Shown here: positions 41,423 through 51,541 of the stretch, one piece after another
Position numbering within the stretch: the first letter of the stretch is position 1
How the letters are laid out: the number at the start of each line of letters is the position of its first letter
Assembly (NCBI GenBank): GCA_036338695.1
Contig: JAYZBQ010000048.1
Coordinates: 64,001-128,000 of the forward strand
Origin: Myxococcota bacterium
GTDB taxonomy: Bacteria > Myxococcota > UBA4151
Length of the DNA stretch: 64,000 bases
Direction of reading: 5' to 3'
Program-made: the position numbers and the translations under genes
The notes under the pieces: generated by a model
Seen by the model: only the letters and a program-made list of their open reading frames with translations
Told to the model about the DNA's origin: nothing
Database searches by the model: none

Positions 41423-42386
41423 CGTCGGCGTTGCGCGCCCAGGCGTCGACGAGGTGCTTACAACCTGGTCGGGCGAAACGCCTCGTCCACACGTTGCGCA
41501 GAGGCCACAAACGGAGCTGGAGTTCGTAGCCGACATCGACAAAGCCAGCGGCTCGGTTTTTCGTGCGCGACGCAGTGTTGTGCGCTTGCAACGCCGCAAC
41601 CAGCGTCATCTCGGACGCTCGGAAATCGATTACCCAATCAGCGAGCGCGCGAGACAACCCCTGACGCCGATGCGACGGGACCACGTAGCTGTCGTGCAGG
41701 TTGGCGTAGCCAGGTTCCCACTGGCTGGTCCAGGCGCAGGCGACGGCGCGCACCTCATCATAAACGATCACGCCATACGTCGTCTCATCAGTATACCGGG
41801 GCAGCGGTAAGCCGGTGACGGCGAGCTCCTCTCGCCACGGCTCAAAGAACCCATGCTGCACTCGATACGAAGGCGCCCACTCCACGAGACGAGGCTCAGC
41901 CGGTGTCGAGATGATGATCCGTACAGAAGGAGCAAACGGTCTGAGCAAGGTGCGATAGGTGAGATAAACAGCGTTTCCTACCAGGGACCAACTCTTCGCG
42001 TCGTCGATCCGCCGACGCCATCGTCTGCGCCATGCGCCGAGCGTCTTTGGCTGAAACCACCGGTTGTAGAGCGCGCTGCGCCACCCACGCTCCACCCGCA
42101 CCACGACGCCAGCGACCTGATCCGGCTCAAGCCATGGGTCCATGTGCTCCAGGCCGTCACCGCGTGTTCGAAGTCGGCCCTCGTCTTTTTGGAGGAGTCG
42201 ATGCACCGTCAGCGAGGGCTTACCGACGTCAAACGCGAGCAGGTCACCCACTTGATATTCGTCACGAGGCGCAATCACGACGCGATCACCCTCGATCAAC
42301 GTCGGCCACATCGAGCGGCCTTGAACGCGCAAAGTGGCTCGCTCGCCGCGCCCGAGCAGATCGAGCGTCAGATCAGCGGGCCGCAT
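41406..42386 (-). CDS. S24/S26-family peptidase fused to a GNAT-like acyltransferase domain
   Basis: GRSMWPTL..GD, VHRL and TRGD in the N-terminal part. C-terminal V.PSHRRQGL and N.AS....AGF GNAT motifs. Start placed at ATG 42386. Confidence 0.8.
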   Translation of the reverse strand: MRPADLTLDLLGRGERATLRVQGRSMWPTLIEGDRVVIAPRDEYQVGDLLAFDVGKPSLTVHRLLQKDEGRLRTRGDGLEHMDPWLEPDQVAGVVVRVERGWRSALYNRWFQPKTLGAWRRRWRRRIDDAKSWSLVGNAVYLTYRTLLRPFAPSVRIIISTPAEPRLVEWAPSYRVQHGFFEPWREELAVTGLPLPRYTDETTYGVIVYDEVRAVACAWTSQWEPGYANLHDSYVVPSHRRQGLSRALADWVIDFRASEMTLVAALQAHNTASRTKNRAAGFVDVGYELQLRLWPLRNVWTRRFARPGCKHLVDAWARNADAKARR

Positions 42387-43149
42387 CAAGCACTCGCTGA
42401 ATGGCATCCACTGGAGAGTGATCAAGCGACCAACCGACACGCAAGACCGGAGTCTGGCGTAGCGCATCATACGCCCAGTCGAGGTCGTCAAAAAGATCAT
42501 CGCCGCGCAGCCGAATGAGCGCATTCGCCAGCGCAACGTGGGCGTCGTACCCGTCGACCCGCTCGATCGATGTGACCTGTTCATGAGCTGGCAGCAACAA
42601 CGCGGCGACCGGGACGCGATCCCAAAATGTCGGCAACCGCTCGCCCGGAACTAAGCACGCCTGAGCGTGGAGCGAGCGGTCAGCGGATGACAGCGCAAGG
42701 GCCTCATCGCCGAGCTCATCCCCGCCGAGCGCAGCGGTCAGTGTTGACTTCCCCGCGCCCGACAGTCCGATCGCAACCAGCGCGCCGTAGCCGGGTAGAT
42801 AGCGCCCCGCAGCGTGCGCCAGACGATCTCCACGCCGACGCAAAAAATGGGCGGATAAGCCCATGATACCATGTAAAATGGTGCGCGGTGCGCCGTGCCG
42901 AAGCGGCTGTCCGGGGAGCTCGGGATAGACCAAGGTGCCCTGATCAGTCACCGGGCCGAGCGCCAGCGTCTTGCCGCCACGGTGAGAGGACGCGCCGGGC
43001 CCAGCGACCAAGCGCGCATGCCACCAGTCTTGGTCTGTTCGGACTGGAAACCCCTCACAGAACGCTTGCGCAAGCGCTTGAGTCGTGTGGGCGTATCCCT
43101 CGAGCTCTAGGTCTAGATTAGCTGGACCCACACAGAAGGAACACGCCAC
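42373..43149 (-). CDS. HPr-kinase-like P-loop protein
   Basis: HAA, GLSGAGKST and GDE motif order typical of HPrK-like kinases found in RiPP clusters. Confidence 0.72.
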   Translation of the reverse strand: MACSFCVGPANLDLELEGYAHTTQALAQAFCEGFPVRTDQDWWHARLVAGPGASSHRGGKTLALGPVTDQGTLVYPELPGQPLRHGAPRTILHGIMGLSAHFLRRRGDRLAHAAGRYLPGYGALVAIGLSGAGKSTLTAALGGDELGDEALALSSADRSLHAQACLVPGERLPTFWDRVPVAALLLPAHEQVTSIERVDGYDAHVALANALIRLRGDDLFDDLDWAYDALRQTPVLRVGWSLDHSPVDAIQRVLDAAR

Positions 43150-43161
43150 AGCGTTGACCCT

Positions 43162-43281
43162 CTAGAAGCCGCTCGCCAAAGCGTCTTGAACCAAAGGCTT
43201 CTCGTCCCGCACACGCGGCGGGTGATAGGCCTTTCGCTCTTCGTTACGCTTCGATTGGCTGTTCTTGTTCTTCTCGTTCAT
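43162..43281 (-). CDS. Putative RiPP precursor peptide, 39 aa: MNEKNKNSQSKRNEERKAYHPPRVRDEKPLVQDALASGF
   Basis: Translated by hand; below the ORF-track cutoff. ATG 43281 has an AAGGGGG RBS and the TAG is at 43162-43164. It fills the intergenic gap and carries a YxxPxV RRE-binding motif. Confidence 0.8.
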   Translation of the reverse strand: MNEKNKNSQSKRNEERKAYHPPRVRDEKPLVQDALASGF

Positions 43282-43291
43282 CGCTACCCCC

Positions 43292-46200
43292 TTAGTAACG
43301 CAGCCGCCAGGAACCACCGGACACGGTGCGTACAATCGCTAGATCCACGGCGCTGTCGCCGTTGGCGTCTGCACAGACACCAAGGCCCCAGCCCGACCCG
43401 ATATCGTATTCACGGTCCGAGCTCAGGTTGAAGTCGGCGCCGTTTTGGTGACCAAAGTAGACAAAGGCCCGTGTCTCTGCACCCAAGATCAAATCCTCGT
43501 AACCGTCACCGTTAAGATCGCATGAGCTCTGCTGGTTCGCATATTTAAAGCGCGGCGTCGTACCGGGAATCGGTAGGGTGACCGTCGCTTGAGCGTTGAG
43601 CGCATTGGCGCCCTCATAGATATACCACCAGTACGTCCCCTGGGTGGTGCCGTGGTTGACGATGAGGTCTTTCTTAGAGGTTCCCACGACGTTGCCGACG
43701 GTAATTCTAAAGCCCATCTGTCCAGTCGTCTGCTGCGCTCCAGCGATCGTCACGACATTCGGTGACGACGTCGTGTACGCCCCGCTCAGCCCGCCACCTT
43801 CGTTGCCGGTGATAACAAAGACACCGCCCGCTCGCGAGTTCAAGAAGGGCGCACCCAGCGCGACGTCTCCTGCGTTGTCGCCGACAAAGTCGTGGCCCGA
43901 GATGACCACGAGCCCTGCCCGTGACCCTGCGACCCCTACGAAGGTGGCGTCTGCGTCAGCCTGCACCACCGTGCCGCCAGCGGCGATGTCATCACCGTCA
44001 AAGAAGTAGGTGGTACCCGTCGACCCATTCAAGAGCGGCGCGGTCACCGCTAAGTCGACGGTCGCGTCGCCGAGCACCGAACCTTGCGCCGAGACCGAGT
44101 AACCGAAATAGCCCGTCCCTGTGCCTTGGATGGTCGTCGTAGGCGTCGCCGAGACCCCTTGTGCGCTGCCGTTGAAGACATACGCCTTACCACCGTCGGT
44201 GTTGCTGACTGTCGAAACGATCAACTCATCAAACCCGTCCTCGTTGAAGTCGGCGGTCGTACAGAAGTTCCCAAAGCGTCCCCCGGAGACCGTTCCTGGG
44301 AGAATCACAGGCGTGAGGTTCGCCGCGTTAGCAGCACCATAGTAGATGAACACGGCGCCCACGCTGACGCCATTGTTGACGTAATCTCGGTCGGTCACGA
44401 CCACGTCGTCGCGGCTGTCACCGTTAAAGTCGCCCTGGCAGATGTCCCAACCCCATTTGGCGCTCGTACCTGCGGGCTGGAACTCAGCCTGCGTGAGCTC
44501 GGTGTCCACCGAGATGATCGAGCTGTTCTCGATCGCGCCGAGGTTCCCGACATCATCGACGGCACGCGCCGCAATCGAGACGCTCGGGTCATCAAACGCA
44601 ACCCCTGCGATATCCACCTGAAAAGCGGCGCCCGCGGCCTGAGGCACCATCGCCTCGCTCGCCTGGGTTGCGCTGTTGAAGTTCCCTTCGGTGATCGCGT
44701 TGCCGCTGTGACGCACTTGGTAACCGGTCACCGTCCCGGTGTCCACGTCGTCGCCCGGTTCATTCCAGGTCAGGCGCACGGTGCCGGTGCGCTTGTCCTG
44801 TACGACGCCGTTGATCGTCATCGCGTCGGGTGCGACGACGTCGACGGTGGCGCTCAGGGACGTCTGCGCGGTGTTCCCCGCCGCATCCGTCGCCGTGAAC
44901 GTGATGGCGTGAATCAACCCACTGTTCAGGGTTGCGCCGGTGATCGTCACCGGTCCATCGGCGTTCACCGCGACCGTGCCGATCGTTGCGGTTTGATCGC
45001 TCACACCGCCAAGCGTTCCGCCGATGGCGCCGGTGACGGTGAAGGTGAACGAGGTGTTCAGCGGCGCCCCGCCTTGTTGGTCGTCAGCCAGCGTGTAGGT
45101 CGCCGGGCTAGCAGCGGGCGTCGTCATCTCGATCGTCGGCGCAGTGATGTCGACCACCACCGTCAGATCGGCGTTGGTCGTGTTGCCATCTTGCGTCACT
45201 GCGGCGCGCAAGCTGTGCGACCCTTCCGTCAGGGTGATCGGTCCGATGGTCACCGCACCGTTCGCGACGATACCGGTCCCTAACGGGTTACCATTTTCGC
45301 TCAAGGTGACGGTCTGTCCAGCCGCGTCTGAGCTCAGCGCAAACGTGTACTGGAGACCGTTGGCGCCGTTGTCTAGGTCATCGCTGGCGTTGAGGTTCGC
45401 TGGGTTCGAGTCAGGCGTCGTAAAGAGCAAGGTGGGCGCCACCAAGCTGAGTGAGATCGGGACCCCAGCGCTTGTCGACTCGTTACCGCTCGTGTCCGAG
45501 ACGACGGCGGTCAGGGTCTGATCGCCCTCGAGCAAGGTGCAGCGAATGACGAGGTCCTGTCCGGTCGTCTGCGACGTACAGCGCTCGCCCCCGACGGTGC
45601 TGCGAACGCTGACGGTCTGACCGTTCTCAACCTGGCTTGCGCTCACGGTCACGTCCGTCTGAAACCCAGCCGCCTGATCGTCGGCGTCGTTATCATCGCC
45701 AAAGCTCGCGTTCGCTGCAGGGCTCGTGACAGCGACGACCGGCGCGATCGAATCCACGGTCACCACCACCGCCTCACTCGTCGTGGCGTTCCCGGCTTCA
45801 TCGGTGGCGACCGCGGTCAACGTGACGGCGCCCTCGGGCAAGGTCACCGCGGCGCTCGCAGCGCCGTTGGCGACGTTCGCCGTGGCGAGCTCGGCGTCAC
45901 CATTTCGGATGCTCACGCTGGTGCCGTCTTCGGCGTCGGTGCTCACCGTGATGGTGGTTTGCAGTCCGTCAGTCTGAGGGTCGGTGTCGGCGCTGGCGAG
46001 CAGCGTGGCGCCGTTCGCAGGCGACGTGATCGCCGAGGTCGGTGCGGTCACATCCACACGGACCACCATACCCGCTCCAGGATCGTTGATGTTCCCTGCA
46101 GCGTCTGCGACGCGCAAGGTGACGGTGTGATCTCCGTCGCCCAAGCTGCCGGCGACCGTGGCCGTCCCGTCGACGATACCGCCCGTGCCTGCCGGCGTGT

Positions 46201-49200
46201 TCGGCGCAGGGTTGTTCGTCAGCATGGTCACCGTGGCGTTCTCAGCCTGCCCGGCAACGGTGGCAGCGCAACTACCCTGCCAACCTGCGGTGTTCGGGTC
46301 CGCGTCTTCAGCCTTGTTGAACACGAGGAATCCAGCTTGTTGCGCGCCGTCATCGCCCGCCCAAGTGCAGTCACTGATGGTCGGGCGTGTCAGGTCGACC
46401 GTGATCGAGACCGTATCCGTCGCCGAGTTGATCCCGTCGTCCACGCGCGCCGTCAGGGTCTGAGTCCCCTCAACCACCGTCACGTTCGGAATCTCAATGG
46501 TCGCCGCAGCGAGCTGGCCCGAGCCGATCACCTGGTCATTGCTGTCGAGCACTTGGACCGTCGTGCCCAGCTGGACACCTTGAACACCCATCCGCAGAAC
46601 GATCTGAAAGCCAGCGAGTTGACCGTTGGTGTCTTCGTTGATGCCAAAGAGGGCATCTGCGCCCGGACTAAAGATATCGATGGTCGGCGCCGTACCGTCG
46701 ACCTCGACGTTGACCACATCGCTCGTCTCAGTGTTGCCAACGGCGTCTGTTGCGCGGGCGCTGATCTGCCGCTGACCATCAGCGAGCGTCACACCGACAA
46801 AGGTTGCGCTCAACGCGGCGCCGGTCGTCCCGGCCACTTGATCATCGACAAGGAGCGCGATCTGTGAGCCCTCGGCGGCGCCCGTCGTCGCGACGTCGAC
46901 GTCGTACTGAAGCCCCTCAACAAAATTATTGGCGTCATCTTCGGCGCCGAGCTGCGCGTTGTTCTGCGGATCCGTGACCGACACCGTCGGACCGACTCGG
47001 TCAACGACGACCGCCACGTTGGCGCCTCCTGCGTTTCCAGCGAGATCCGTCGCGGCGACGGTCAAGGTGACCTCACTGTTCGGGTCGTTCACCTCGTCCG
47101 CCAGCGCCACAGCGCTGAACGTAAAAGAGCAGTTATCACCCGGCGCAAAACTCGTTCGCACGATGCCATCCGCGCTCACACCGCCGCCCGCAACGGACAA
47201 CGTCGCTGTGGGGTTGGCGCCCTCAACCGTACACGCTCCATCAGCCGCAGCTGAGACCACGATGTTCCGACGATAACGGTTCCCTTGGGTCGAGTCCGGC
47301 GCGTCCGACGCCGTGTACACGTTCGCGCCGTTGACTTGCGGTATACCAGTAAAGGTGAGCACAGGAGCCGTCTGGTCGACCGTGACCGTCGAAGCCGCCG
47401 AGACCACCGGATCGCGCCCTTGGAACGGACACGTCGCCACCAACGACCAGGCGCCCTCAGCGCCTAGGTTCAAGGTCCCAAAATCAATCGTCCCGTTCGC
47501 CGCAGCGCTTGCGTTTGCGGTCACGTCTTGCTGACCTTGCAAGCTCGCCACCACCGAACACGATGCGCCCTCAGCGGCGTTACTCGAGGCGGTCACATCG
47601 ACCGGGTTGGCGTTGGTCCGTGCGCCGTCGTTGGGTGTCAAAATGCGCACGAAAGGCTGCCCGGTCGTCACCGTCACGATGGCGTCCGCCGTCGCCGTGT
47701 TACCGGCTCGGTCGATCACGGTCGCCGACACCCGGTTCTCACCCTCAAGCAAGGTAAAGCCAACGTCGTTGTTGGTGAAATTGGCGACCGTTGCGCCGTT
47801 TGCGTCGACGGTTGCGCCATTGATCACCGCGCCGTTGAGGCGCATCGTCACCGCTTGACCGACCGGCTCGTTGGTCACGACCACTCGGAAACCATACTGA
47901 AACCCGTTGCTGACGTCAGCGCCCCAATCGAGGTTGAGATTCTGCGTTGCGTTGAGGGTGCCGTCTGCCACCACATCACGCACGCTGCCGCCCGCGCTGC
48001 CATCCAGACCGAGGAGCGCCACGCCCGGCGCCGTGGCGTCCAAGGTCACGCTGACGCTCGCCTGAGGCGCAGGATTCCCTGCGCGATCCGACACATCCGC
48101 TGTGATCGTGTAGACACCGTCTTGGGCGCCCCAGGAGACGTTCTCGACCAGCGCGCGACCGTTTTCATCCACCGTCGGCGCAGGATCGATCGCAGCGCCA
48201 CCGTTAACGGAGATCGTGACCGGCTGACCGACCTCTGCATCCGTGATCGCCAGCTCAATGCTGGAGCTCCCGGACGCCACAACGGCGCCATCCACGGGCG
48301 ACGCAAAGGTGATCGTCGGCGCAGTGCCATCGACGTTCAGGTTGAGCGCCTCAGAGGGAAGGGCGCGGTTACCGTCACCGCCACGCGTCACCGCTCCGGC
48401 TCGGATACCCCACAAGCCGTCGGGCAAGGTCAACCGCACACCGCCGACGCCTGTGTCGTTATCACTCGCCGCAGGTTCAGCCAGCGCGCTGGCGACCCAC
48501 GGACCGGTGGCGTTGCCTTGATCATCGAGCGTCTGCAGCTCGCAGTACACCCTTGGGTCCAGCGAGGAGATCGTGGAAAAGTTGGCGATCGACACCGCGC
48601 AGTCGAGCTGAAACCCTTCAAGCTGCGGGTCGGCGTCTGCAGCGGCGAGTACGGCGCCGGACTGAGCTGGCTGCACCAGGGTCACGACGGGCACCGTGAT
48701 GTCCACCTCGACCTCACGGGTGGCGGTCGCAGGGTTCCCTGCGGCGTCCGAGGTCGAGACGGTAAGCGTCTGATTTCCGGCGGGCAGCCGAACGTCAAGG
48801 CTGGCGACGCCAAGCTCACTCGGAGCGGCCGAGACCGCGCCCGCCTCATCGTCCCCGACACGCGCCGTGACCAACGACACATCCGCATAGTTCGTCAGGC
48901 GCACTTGCAGGCGATAGGTGAGCTCGTCGAGCGGGTTCCCATCTTGGTCGTCTGACGCGGTCAGCACCGTGCGGCTGTCCGCCGAGAGCCCGACAACCTC
49001 TATGCCAGGGGCGAGGGTGTCGACCAGATGAACCTGTCGCAGCGAGGAGCCCTGGTTGCGCGAACCCGATTGGTCCGTCACGACTGCGGTAAAGCTCTGC
49101 AGGTCTTGGTTGTTGGCGCTCTGGGCGAGGACGATCCGGAGCGTGGCGCTGCCGTCGTCGCCGATCGCGCCCGTGACCGGCTCGGCGCCGACCGGGATCG

Positions 49201-50095
49201 TTACGGTCGAGCCTGCACCGCAACGAGTCGAGCTGACGACCACGTCCACGTCGGCGACCTCAGGCGTGCTCGGGTCGGCGTCATTCGCTGCGAGCACCGG
49301 CGTTCCGTTGACCGGAGCGGTCACCGCCACGTCACAGCGCCCGGTGTCCACCTCAAGCTCGAGCGTCGCCGTACCAGCCTGGTCTTGATCGAGCAGAACG
49401 TAGGTGGTCAGGCGTGCGGCACCCTCTGGAAGGCTGACGTTGTTGAACGTGGCGCTGCCGCCTTGCAACGTCTCCGAGAGCGCGCTGGCTGCGCCGTCCA
49501 CGTTGAGCCCGACGGTCAAGCCATCGACTACGCCATCGCCCGCACAGCTCACGCCGATATGGGTCTGAAATCCAGCGTTGATGACGTCGAGGTCATCGCT
49601 AAGCGTAGCGCCCGCCACCAGCTCGGGACCTCCCGTAGCCTGCGTGAAGCGGCACTTTGGACCACCCGGCGCCACGACAGAAAAGTTGGCCGTCGTGACC
49701 ACATCCGCGCCGAAGTTATGCGTCAACGTCGCCTCGAGCTCGTTGGTTCCGCTGACGAGCGTGACTCCCTCGATGGTCCCGCTCCTGCTGGTGCTGTCGC
49801 CTCCTAGGCTGACCTCTTGCGCCGACCCGTCGACGTCACTTTTGTTCACCAAACGAACCGTGACCGAGTCATCGCTGGCGTTGAGCCCGACGGCGCGCAA
49901 CCGGACAGCGATCTGGACGCCCGGCGTGCTCGGGTCCACATCATCAGCAGCCTGAATACGAGCGCCTGGATTCGGAGAGACAAACGCTAAGCCGACGATG
50001 TTGGTCGGCGCCTCTTCACAGGCGCAACCGCCAAAACTCATTGTACTGAGCAAGGCAGCGCCCGCTAGCAATCGAACAGGAGCAAGCCGAAGCAT
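43292..50095 (-). CDS. Giant (2267 aa) surface lipoprotein: tandem Ig-like repeats, an FN3-like domain and a C-terminal FG-GAP beta-propeller
   Basis: AGGAGG RBS and lipobox FGGC. Repeated D.TAP...I.SP, D.AGN and DxD...G.Q motifs, then LTW.EPGDD, and GDFNGD/DFNEDG/DLNGDG FG-GAP repeats. Confidence 0.9.
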   Translation of the reverse strand: MLRLAPVRLLAGAALLSTMSFGGCACEEAPTNIVGLAFVSPNPGARIQAADDVDPSTPGVQIAVRLRAVGLNASDDSVTVRLVNKSDVDGSAQEVSLGGDSTSRSGTIEGVTLVSGTNELEATLTHNFGADVVTTANFSVVAPGGPKCRFTQATGGPELVAGATLSDDLDVINAGFQTHIGVSCAGDGVVDGLTVGLNVDGAASALSETLQGGSATFNNVSLPEGAARLTTYVLLDQDQAGTATLELEVDTGRCDVAVTAPVNGTPVLAANDADPSTPEVADVDVVVSSTRCGAGSTVTIPVGAEPVTGAIGDDGSATLRIVLAQSANNQDLQSFTAVVTDQSGSRNQGSSLRQVHLVDTLAPGIEVVGLSADSRTVLTASDDQDGNPLDELTYRLQVRLTNYADVSLVTARVGDDEAGAVSAAPSELGVASLDVRLPAGNQTLTVSTSDAAGNPATATREVEVDITVPVVTLVQPAQSGAVLAAADADPQLEGFQLDCAVSIANFSTISSLDPRVYCELQTLDDQGNATGPWVASALAEPAASDNDTGVGGVRLTLPDGLWGIRAGAVTRGGDGNRALPSEALNLNVDGTAPTITFASPVDGAVVASGSSSIELAITDAEVGQPVTISVNGGAAIDPAPTVDENGRALVENVSWGAQDGVYTITADVSDRAGNPAPQASVSVTLDATAPGVALLGLDGSAGGSVRDVVADGTLNATQNLNLDWGADVSNGFQYGFRVVVTNEPVGQAVTMRLNGAVINGATVDANGATVANFTNNDVGFTLLEGENRVSATVIDRAGNTATADAIVTVTTGQPFVRILTPNDGARTNANPVDVTASSNAAEGASCSVVASLQGQQDVTANASAAANGTIDFGTLNLGAEGAWSLVATCPFQGRDPVVSAASTVTVDQTAPVLTFTGIPQVNGANVYTASDAPDSTQGNRYRRNIVVSAAADGACTVEGANPTATLSVAGGGVSADGIVRTSFAPGDNCSFTFSAVALADEVNDPNSEVTLTVAATDLAGNAGGANVAVVVDRVGPTVSVTDPQNNAQLGAEDDANNFVEGLQYDVDVATTGAAEGSQIALLVDDQVAGTTGAALSATFVGVTLADGQRQISARATDAVGNTETSDVVNVEVDGTAPTIDIFSPGADALFGINEDTNGQLAGFQIVLRMGVQGVQLGTTVQVLDSNDQVIGSGQLAAATIEIPNVTVVEGTQTLTARVDDGINSATDTVSITVDLTRPTISDCTWAGDDGAQQAGFLVFNKAEDADPNTAGWQGSCAATVAGQAENATVTMLTNNPAPNTPAGTGGIVDGTATVAGSLGDGDHTVTLRVADAAGNINDPGAGMVVRVDVTAPTSAITSPANGATLLASADTDPQTDGLQTTITVSTDAEDGTSVSIRNGDAELATANVANGAASAAVTLPEGAVTLTAVATDEAGNATTSEAVVVTVDSIAPVVAVTSPAANASFGDDNDADDQAAGFQTDVTVSASQVENGQTVSVRSTVGGERCTSQTTGQDLVIRCTLLEGDQTLTAVVSDTSGNESTSAGVPISLSLVAPTLLFTTPDSNPANLNASDDLDNGANGLQYTFALSSDAAGQTVTLSENGNPLGTGIVANGAVTIGPITLTEGSHSLRAAVTQDGNTTNADLTVVVDITAPTIEMTTPAASPATYTLADDQQGGAPLNTSFTFTVTGAIGGTLGGVSDQTATIGTVAVNADGPVTITGATLNSGLIHAITFTATDAAGNTAQTSLSATVDVVAPDAMTINGVVQDKRTGTVRLTWNEPGDDVDTGTVTGYQVRHSGNAITEGNFNSATQASEAMVPQAAGAAFQVDIAGVAFDDPSVSIAARAVDDVGNLGAIENSSIISVDTELTQAEFQPAGTSAKWGWDICQGDFNGDSRDDVVVTDRDYVNNGVSVGAVFIYYGAANAANLTPVILPGTVSGGRFGNFCTTADFNEDGFDELIVSTVSNTDGGKAYVFNGSAQGVSATPTTTIQGTGTGYFGYSVSAQGSVLGDATVDLAVTAPLLNGSTGTTYFFDGDDIAAGGTVVQADADATFVGVAGSRAGLVVISGHDFVGDNAGDVALGAPFLNSRAGGVFVITGNEGGGLSGAYTTSSPNVVTIAGAQQTTGQMGFRITVGNVVGTSKKDLIVNHGTTQGTYWWYIYEGANALNAQATVTLPIPGTTPRFKYANQQSSCDLNGDGYEDLILGAETRAFVYFGHQNGADFNLSSDREYDIGSGWGLGVCADANGDSAVDLAIVRTVSGGSWRLRY

Positions 50096-50106: not shown

Positions 50107-50394
50107 TTATTCCGCCCATGTGATCAGACCTCGCCGGTGCAAATCATCTACAAACACCTTCAAGTCCTTCAAAGCGGTCTCTTCTGAAACGTTGAACTCT
50201 TCCGTGATCGCCGCTGCGACCCCCCGAAGTGTAGCGCAGCCGTCGAATCGCTGAAATGCAAAACTGCCGACCTCACTCAATCTCCGTATGCAAGCGTCGG
50301 AACTCGTCACCACCAGGACCTCTCCATCATACGCCCGCCAGCTGACCCGGCTTGGGATGACCGGGACGCGCTGGTCGCTTTGCGATGGGTCCAT
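50107..50394 (-). CDS. PqqD-family protein (RiPP recognition element)
   Basis: DGEVLVV..L.EVG..F..FDG..T...I.EEF.V...A..DL..FV..L...GLI matches the PqqD/RRE pattern. Confidence 0.88.
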   Translation of the reverse strand: MDPSQSDQRVPVIPSRVSWRAYDGEVLVVTSSDACIRRLSEVGSFAFQRFDGCATLRGVAAAITEEFNVSEETALKDLKVFVDDLHRRGLITWAE

Positions 50395-50452: not shown

Positions 50453-51541
50453 TCACAATGAGGACCCGAGCGCCGAACGAACCGCGCGCTCGACGCCCTG
50501 CAGATCGGGCGTCCCGGACCACAATCGAACCACGCGCCCCTGGGGGCCGATCAGCGCCAAGGTCGGATACACAGTGATCCCGACGGCGTCCGCCCACGCG
50601 CCGCGGTCCACCAAAACCCGAAGCTCGGGCGCCCTATCCGATTGGTATTTCTTTATATTTTTTAGCAGCTCAGGGTGCGGTTGACCGCGCCCCTCAACGT
50701 TGACCAGCAGCAACTCAAAGCGCGGATCTTGGACCGACCGCTTGAGCTGGCTCAGACCGGGCAGCAAGCGCTTACAAGCGCCGCACCAAGTCGTCCAAAA
50801 CTCCACTAAGGTTACCCGGCCACGCAGGCCTGCCGGATGCCAGTCTCCGCCCCCAATTTCAGGCGTTACGACCAAGCGGTCGATGAGCTGGTCACCCGCT
50901 ACCGCAGGGGTCCAACTGGCGTACGCGCGCCAGGCAGCAGGCGCCGAGACGATCAGCGCGATCGCAAGGCTGATGCGCACAGCCAGCAGCAAACGTCGCG
51001 TCCCGCCGCCAAAGCGGCGACTAACCAACCAGCCAAGCAACCCGCTCAGGACGACAAAGGCGACCGCAACCGTCCACTGCTCCGGGCGCCAGCGACCCAA
51101 CTCGGTCACCCCGCGGTACGCAGGCAAGTACCCCAACACCCCCTCGGCAAAATCAAAATAACTCCGAGTTGAGGGCAAATGAGACAAAACGAAGACAATA
51201 CGAATCCAAATGAGCGCAAAAGCATAACCCAACCAAACCGAGGAACCCGCTGCAGCCAGGCGGTCCATGCGGGTCCCATCTGAGCGCTCATTGAGCTGCG
51301 TGAGACGCTGAAGCAAGGCACCCAACACCAGCAACGCAACCCAATCGGTAACCACCGGGTAGGCTAATCGGCTGACCATGCCATGGACCGGCGCAAACCA
51401 GTCGCGCCGAAACAAGGCGGCTAGGTAGCCTAAGGAGGTGGCTTGCATCAGGATATTGACCGCGAGCAGATCACCGAAGCCTAACGGTAGCGGGGCGGCG
51501 CCTTTTGGCTTATCCAACACACCCAAGATGGATCGACTCAT
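50453..51541 (-). CDS. Membrane protein with C-terminal TlpA-like thioredoxin domain (start uncertain)
   Basis: Several hydrophobic segments followed by [11 protein letters not shown] and YPT. Confidence 0.8.

Follow-up and report, generated by a model that had tools for sequence, protein, structure and literature searches.

A conserved 39-residue peptide with a predicted five-residue core in an LPP-like maturation cassette of Myxococcota

We analyzed a 64,000-nt stretch of DNA from a Myxococcota genome (here the window) and identified within it a short peptide gene that is, on balance, probably a conserved precursor in a maturation cassette resembling that of the linear polyphosphorylated peptides (LPP), with the acetylated five-residue phosphopeptide Ac-Leu-Ala-pSer-Gly-Phe as its likely product. 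LPP were described in 2026 from the lppA-K-B-S-D-N cluster of Paenibacillus alginolyticus, at which time their final product and role were not known (Popov et al. 2026; PMC13381572).

The peptide is encoded by a 39-aa ORF at positions 43162..43281 on the minus strand, with an ATG start and a TAG stop; by its sequence and its orthologs, it comprises an LPP-like leader and a minimal core. Its translation is identical to that quoted in an earlier note, which had been made on this DNA from the letters alone. As that note had said, KAYHPPRV matches a YxxPxL/V motif; by alignment, the predicted RRE-binding motif YxxPxV (Tyr19 to Val24, YHPPRV) occupies 43210..43227, and YxxP is kept in relatives. 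The peptide has 15 residues after Val24 and contains neither Thr nor Cys, again as described, with Ser at positions 8, 10, and 37. An AAGGGGG ribosome-binding tract (43287..43293, minus strand) is also present, 5 nt before the ATG, but it does not follow the stop codon of the upstream adhesin (giant) gene as the note had it; rather, it overlaps that TAA.

Two analyses bear on whether the ORF could be a chance one. Among 404 ATG-initiated ORFs of 30 to 60 aa in this genome that are preceded by an RBS-like word, Y..P.[VIL] occurs in 4, and only the ORF described here combines it with S/T at Y+18. A family peptide profile, built with the window's own peptide included, was then compared with the genome's 66,093 short segments and returned this peptide at an E value of 3e-12 and the next segment at 1.2. 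Given this unique combination and the gap in E values, we conclude that the ORF is not a chance occurrence. We rejected an assembly or sequencing error as the source of the stop codon, because contigs from three public runs (X2, X6, and X10) cover the ORF and have the identical stop; these runs are labeled marine metagenomes, and any of them may be the source of this assembly. The X10 contig has two differences within the ORF, both synonymous when the codons are read by hand. A recoded TAG was rejected as well, since TAG is an ordinary stop that ends 424 of 1252 long segments of the genome. Metatranscriptome contigs from two runs, which show neither level nor strand, cover the RRE and parts of the giant gene and not the peptide (17/30 bins in X19 and 5/30 in X20). 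Among PDB sequences, the peptide profile found no LppA leader and had a sole match at chance level, and the ESM Atlas matches of the peptide were all below 0.9 and fell in unnamed clusters of 39 to 48 aa.

The peptide gene is part of an operon whose genes all lie on the minus strand, overlapping or a short gap apart, in the order TlpA-like membrane thioredoxin, PqqD/RRE, giant protein, peptide, HprK-like kinase, and peptidase-GNAT. A convergent PBP1A-like gene, recognized from its sequence by inspection, ends the locus. The membrane TlpA/thioredoxin-like gene (50453..51541, start approximate) is syntenic within the family, and its membership in the system is uncertain. The stand-alone PqqD/RRE (50107..50394) scores above the PF05402 cutoff and is the sole PF05402/PqqD match found in the genome. 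Its best PDB match is 9x8z_B, which is LppB (E value, 1.2e-5). Its Asp77 corresponds to the Tyr-binding Asp70 of LppB and is invariant in 33/33 homologs; by our own offset, 6 of the 13 LppB pocket residues named in PMC13381572 are identical, including Asp70 and Phe74. The earlier note's choice of the PqqD protein as the peptide's partner is in keeping with these features, which predict binding.

The kinase gene (42373..43149, minus strand) starts with GTG and encodes 258 aa, with His112, a Walker A motif at 128-135, and Asp148-Glu149; the His, Walker A, and Asp-Glu motifs are invariant in 7/7 sequences. Scores against known kinase families are far below cutoff, with an E value of 0.012 for the window kinase against TIGR04355 and of about 1e-6 for a homolog (L054) against HprK-related kinases A/B; no HPr kinase is among the 60 of 130 PDB matches listed for the kinase. 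The kinase starts with a non-ATG codon, and the reading frame of the peptide's stop codon is that of the kinase in G000 (the window's genome), G001, G002, G004, G005, L145, and L183. We therefore considered whether ribosomes might read through the stop, so that the kinase would carry the peptide as an integral leader. We find this scarcely credible and reject it because the frame is not conserved: it is lost in G003, L147, and L185, even though L185 is very close to G004. The stop codon also differs among relatives (TAG, TAA, or TGA), and RBS-like words precede the kinase starts.

Downstream of the kinase lies a soluble S24/S26 peptidase fused to a GNAT domain (PF00717 and PF00583; 41406..42386, minus strand; 326 aa from the likely Met). 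The peptidase is of the Sec11/archaeal type, with Ser25, His62, and an Asp (Asp77/Asp83), and the best PDB match of the family profile is SEC11A at an E value of 2e-10 (SEC11A/C best). The highest 19-residue hydropathy is 0.99, so the protein appears to be without a membrane helix. In 4/33 homologs (L064, L078, L080, and L102), a Cys takes the place of the catalytic Ser in the S24/S26 domain, with the His retained. The remaining neighbor is the giant protein of 2267 aa (43292..50095, minus strand; Pfam Big_13, Big_3_3, and FG-GAP), which has a lipoprotein-type signal, read from its sequence, followed by an Ig-like stalk and a C-terminal propeller. The C-terminal 430 residues were modeled by AlphaFold2 with a pLDDT of 88.7 and a pTM of 0.89. 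The top Foldseek matches of the propeller are integrin alpha heads (E value, 5e-13; TM score, 0.69), and these predictions together with identity blocks delimit an integrin-alpha-like FG-GAP beta-propeller tip at 43295..44497. No ABC exporter was recognized by inspection among the ORFs of the 30- to 58-kb interval.

The studied LPP system offers a guide to how these proteins may act. The LppA leader has Tyr at -16, and LppS cuts after -1 and requires the RRE to do so; Ser3 of the core is the sole phospho-site and is multiply phosphorylated, substitutions at core positions A1 to N5 leave cutting unimpaired, and mutation of leader Phe-3/Thr-1 lowers cleavage (PMC13381572). When positions are counted from Tyr19, LPP Ser3 falls on Ser37 (Tyr+18), and the cut falls after Ala34 (Tyr+15). 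The window peptide further agrees with LPP at +5 (Val), +11 (hydrophobic), +14 (acidic), and +15 (small). In our preferred reading, the stand-alone RRE would bind Tyr19, Pro22, and Val24, and the HprK-like kinase would add one or more phosphates to Ser37 (codon at 43171-43173, minus strand). The RRE would then present the peptide to the soluble Ser-His S26 peptidase for a cut after Ala34, as in LppA, and the predicted core would be Leu35 to Phe39 (LASGF; 43165..43179, minus strand). The fused GNAT may acetylate the new alpha-amine of Leu35, as the fusion and the lack of Lys in the core suggest. This register is borrowed from LPP rather than demonstrated, since Gln32 and Ala34 occupy the Phe-3 and Thr-1 positions. 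Much of this had been anticipated by the earlier note: its estimate of a core of about 3 to 5 residues agrees with the five residues that the best register would give, and its likely kinase target, Ser37, coincides with the LPP phospho-site at Tyr+18 (PMC13381572), although the chemistry is carried over by analogy.

One point that we count against this register is that Ala34-Leu35-Ala36 also suits an A-x-A signal peptidase site. The same pathway could thus include a cut after Ala36, or after Leu35 with lasso-like spacing, and yield Ac-pSer-Gly-Phe or Ac-Ala-pSer-Gly-Phe, respectively. We regard this as possible but unlikely. Positions +15/+17 are A-x-A or V-x-A in 4/6 family peptides and also in L147 and L183, and the peptidase resembles SEC11 and has Ile at the position of LppS Phe42 (by our own count from the catalytic Ser). 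However, +17 is Leu or Val in G004 and G005, and Gln-Asp at +13/+14 is invariant in 6/6 family peptides, as would be expected for P3/P2. In addition, the closest characterized system cuts two residues earlier, so that Ser is residue 3 (PMC13381572). The cut after Ala34 remains our preferred assignment.

The earlier note had proposed a search of orthologous loci for the ORF and its YxxP motif, and both are conserved. The kinase is present in 5/5 family genomes, and in each the peptide is found at the same place, between the giant gene and the kinase. Tyr19 and Pro22 are invariant in 26/26 aligned peptides, partly by construction given that the peptides were found with the motif, and S/T is present at Y+18 in 6/6 family peptides. 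Beyond the family, a kinase-based search for related loci returned 0/600 stretches, and a generic P-loop pattern returned 1 locus. When a kinase profile was run on 301 genomes of the phylum, 253 matched, many of them probably through generic P-loop hits; we fetched 59 regions around high-ranking hits, hand-chosen for family spread, plus an extension of one earlier locus. A homolog of the giant gene was found in 36 of the 69 loci examined, and in 34 of these 36 a YxxP peptide lies directly behind it. The giant protein belongs to the peptide system, and the cassette is spread phylum-wide across Myxococcota.

These 34 peptides and that of G001, whose contig stops within the giant gene, make up a set of 35. 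Cores are 5 to 6 aa long in 4 of them, all from this family, and 14 to 36 aa long in the other 31. Cys is present in 29/35, and most of the long cores have two or more. S/T is found at Y+18 or Y+19 in 31/35, versus 13% at other positions, a count over related sequences that describes a pattern and not a P value; 4/35 are without S/T at these positions, and in family f10 it lies mostly at +19. Of the 35 loci, 8 contain a radical SAM gene, which the window locus does not, and the peptidase-GNAT fusion occurs in at least 12. Motif scans of 70 loci revealed a kinase match nearby in 10, which included 4 new alleles (L145, L147, L183, and L185). Another 2 were short peptides with no accompanying enzymes, and the remainder were chance matches within long ORFs. 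These loci were left out of the Ser conservation count because the search pattern demanded S/T at +18.

Several variations on the cassette were also seen. Cassette gene order is not fixed: in L016 (G039), L049, L050, L053, and L079, the kinase points the opposite way to the giant gene or peptide, as does the radical SAM gene where there is one. An EamA-family transporter gene, possibly a small-product exporter, follows the cassette on the same strand in L057, L062, L076, L084, L096, and L101 and was not seen at the window locus. Methyltransferase domains lie within the cassettes of L068 and L102, in the latter with one in frame with the radical SAM domain. In G002, an extra unannotated gene after the peptidase (L014:3062-3773) encodes more than 237 aa, is cut by the contig end, and contains an HDH motif, with no match in Pfam or NCBIfam. 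A second subtype (L083, L086, L092, and L106) has an RRE, radical SAM, and kinase, with a peptidase in 3/4, and adjoins proteins of 1000 to 1200 aa that carry a terminal LxGDP motif reminiscent of C25 proteases. Outside the phylum, records from Ruminococcus (L129) and Clostridiaceae (L135) have short peptides in the YxxP...QDVLxS register directly after long ORFs; nothing within 2.5 kb of them matches a kinase, RRE, or peptidase.

The diversity of cores raises the question as to whether a core is released at all. The peptide could instead be mostly leader and remain unreleased, acting inside the cell as a (phosphorylated) RRE-bound adaptor or switch while the enzymes work on something else, for instance the giant protein prior to its export. 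Consistent with this idea, the stretch after the Ser is free to vary between 1 and more than 30 residues in length, there is no linked exporter, the giant gene parts the RRE from the peptide across the phylum, and the two Clostridial peptides in the same register follow large genes with neither kinase nor peptidase match within 2.5 kb. We nonetheless consider it rather improbable. Members of an allele group have conserved cores, and the majority of long cores contain at least two Cys and look like products; furthermore, the same three proteins release a phosphorylated core in LPP (PMC13381572). Release of a short phosphopeptide remains the reading that we favor.

Cores of 4 to 6 aa occur in two separate clades of this family. 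The kinase tree places the GNAT-associated LAS(G)[F/I] cores in one clade (support, 98/97) and the L[LV]SE[SA]K cores in another (100/99), which the long-core G002, G003, and L145 join only at 87/82. This arrangement makes two independent shortenings of the core likely, though unproven. Two metagenome relatives with the cores LASI and LASF also have the peptidase-GNAT fusion, and the four GNAT-linked short cores (LASGF twice, LASF, and LASI) are all without Lys. Lys is present in 3/3 of the SE[SA]K cores, and the two of these with a complete peptidase gene are without GNAT. Because the GNAT-linked short cores have no Lys, the GNAT target is likely the freed alpha-amine. This pattern, with GNAT fused to the peptidase, favors the earlier note's proposal of the freed N terminus, with the chemistry again a prediction. 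In two of three copies of the SE[SA]K-allele kinase (L012:9735-9780, L013:10012-10045, and L185), no ATG, GTG, or TTG lies near the 5' end; a conserved ATT 9 to 10 nt after an AAGG tract may be a rare start codon, and other kinase alleles appear to start with GTG or TTG.

A short core might also be a sign of decay, in which a nonsense change shortened the peptide of a cassette that is being lost. The 14- to 36-aa cores of 31/35 relatives and the radical SAM gene missing here would fit such a history, which we judge very improbable in view of the following. In comparison with G001, the last 24 codons comprise 13 identical, 9 synonymous, and 2 nonsynonymous, a synonymous excess. All catalytic motifs are intact, the short cores persist in two well-supported kinase clades, and in L183 one Gly codon has been cleanly deleted with the Ser and Phe kept. 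The same codon comparison between G004 and G005 gives 18 identical, 2 synonymous, and 4 nonsynonymous, and this nonsynonymous excess, the weak kinase family scores, and the 4/35 peptides without S/T are points that we count against our preferred reading.

Within the family, the propeller tip, peptide, and kinase vary together. Judged by PBP1A identity (89% for G001 and 91% for G003), these two genomes lie at the same distance from the window. G001 has the same core; identity is 92% for the final 121 residues of its giant protein and 63% for its kinase. G003 has another core; its stalk is 73 to 83% identical over the initial 900 residues, but identity is 29% for the tip and 28% for the kinase. 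Similarly, L145 and G005 are 100% identical over 272 aa of PBP1A and 95% identical in the peptidase, yet they differ in core, with 30% identity in the tip and 40% in the kinase, whereas G004 and G005 share only 90% in PBP1A and 97% and 93% in tip and kinase. Across nine tips, identity is 63 to 100% within a core type and 27 to 36% between types, following core type and not genome background. Because identities track core type rather than PBP1A background, we conclude that the tip, peptide, and kinase vary and move as one exchangeable block within this family.

Linkage alone could explain this exchange, because the three genes are adjacent, and in the 12 loci of family f10, core similarity correlates with that of the tip no better than with that of the RRE (Spearman coefficients, 0.46 versus 0.42), which indicates no tip-core signal beyond relatedness. 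In the weakest step of the proposed pathway, the product would most likely be the allele-matched partner, as ligand or tag, of the integrin-like tip of the giant lipoprotein; the lack of a linked exporter that would bring the phosphopeptide to a surface protein counts against it. We tentatively suggest, with low confidence, a polymorphic ligand-receptor module in which each allele would combine a phosphopeptide, Ac-LA-pS-GF in this case, with the kinase cognate to it and a propeller to match, all swapped as a block between genomes, for allele-specific recognition or control of adhesion. Such a block presumably resembles the agr-type or TraA-type polymorphic recognition loci.

Very small RiPP cores have precedent in PQQ, mycofactocin, and the biarylitides. 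A natural variant with four or five residues suggests that the working part may be the conserved x-x-pSer start rather than the variable tail, and a peptide of this size is small enough for synthesis. The fused GNAT is a candidate for a final step that is absent from the studied LPP cluster, and the neighboring propeller, whose variation follows that of the core, is a tangible candidate for a partner. If the ligand-receptor module is real, LPP would acquire a function as a class, along with x-x-pSer as a minimal pharmacophore. The core chemistry itself has been known since 2026 (LPP; PMC13381572), and the present loci extend the RRE-kinase-signal-peptidase logic across Myxococcota. In the literature consulted, which included few subscription papers, we came across no account of this cassette in Myxococcota, of a signal peptidase for RiPPs fused to GNAT, of LPP-like cores of 4 to 6 aa, or of tip-core exchange. 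The main text of PMC13381572 contains none of the terms "Myxococc," "GNAT," and "surface"; its supplement has a few Myxococcota SpI homologs (4 occurrences), with no precursor assigned in the 3 rows listed.

The earlier note had taken the leader for a lasso-type one, and this assignment did not hold. The window shares YxxPx[LV], a discrete RRE, and an HprK-like tailoring kinase with lasso peptides, including those phosphorylated in the manner of paeninodin. We rejected a lasso precursor, however, because a B2 peptidase was not found, the locus has no linked cyclase, and NF033521 misses the window peptide while matching a true lasso precursor (L017; E value, 1.2e-6). Specifically, PF13471, the B2 transglutaminase-like leader peptidase, was not found in G000 (93.6% complete), and the genome's five Asn_synthase-domain matches all lie outside the window. 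The peptide likewise has no Thr (or Ile/Val) at -2 of the lasso spacing, and a core of 3 to 5 aa has no Asp/Glu at positions 7 to 9 to serve as ring acceptor, in agreement with the note's own view that it cannot form a lasso. The control locus L017 (G052) is a conventional lasso-type cluster with an HprK-like kinase. In Bradymonas sediminis, BsfK from the Bsf lasso cluster phosphorylates core Ser3 with the assistance of the RRE (Duan et al. 2023; PMC10368454). An RRE-assisted HPr-like kinase acting on Ser3, as predicted for the window, and a YxxPxL-type leader are common to both, and an FG-GAP repeat gene borders the Bsf cluster, which its authors judged uninvolved. Bsf differs in its B2 peptidase, cyclase, ABC transporter, nucleotidyltransferase, and Gly1-Asp8 ring, none of which is linked in the window. 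Similarity to the SynChlorMet system (TIGRFAM) extends to the RRE, which matches ScmD at an E value of 1e-5, and to a kinase homolog that matches ScmC and HprK_rel_A/B; these SynChlorMet and HprK-related A/B matches are far below cutoff, and the window locus is without a radical SAM gene.

The closest parallel is LPP, although we do not file the window peptide in that class, because the conserved Phe/Thr are missing from its leader and the locus has no linked nucleotidyltransferase or ABC exporter. The leader has no His-Gln and has Q-D-A in place of the LPP F-E-T; the scanning motif used for LPP is Px9Fx[T/A] (PMC13381572). The core LPP cluster includes a nucleotidyltransferase and an MsbA-like exporter. 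We found neither in 47 downstream frames from 29 related loci; the frames were picked by length, and some may be wrong frames. A PF14907 (NTP_transf_5) gene is present once per genome in 6/6 family genomes, always on another contig, at a conserved site with unrelated neighbors (G000:C21:23313-23918 and L109-L113, near apaG-like and DNA-methylase-like genes by inspection), and it could act in trans. The two systems differ further in host (Myxococcota versus Bacillota), in the GNAT fused to the window peptidase, and in setting, with a giant FG-GAP lipoprotein between RRE and precursor here and capsular polysaccharide genes in LPP. The core is 5 aa in the window versus 45 aa in LppA and at least 18 aa in 14 precursors of the available part of the LPP supplement, in which shorter ones may exist. 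What they have in common is a discrete, stand-alone RRE; an HprK-like kinase in the cluster, with weak family hits here; and a soluble archaeal-type signal peptidase whose Ser-His-Asp motifs predict activity. They also share a YxxPxV leader, a Ser at Tyr+18 that would be core position 3, a locus that lacks a macrolactam cyclase, and a variable C terminus. By analogy, the window peptide would work like an LPP.
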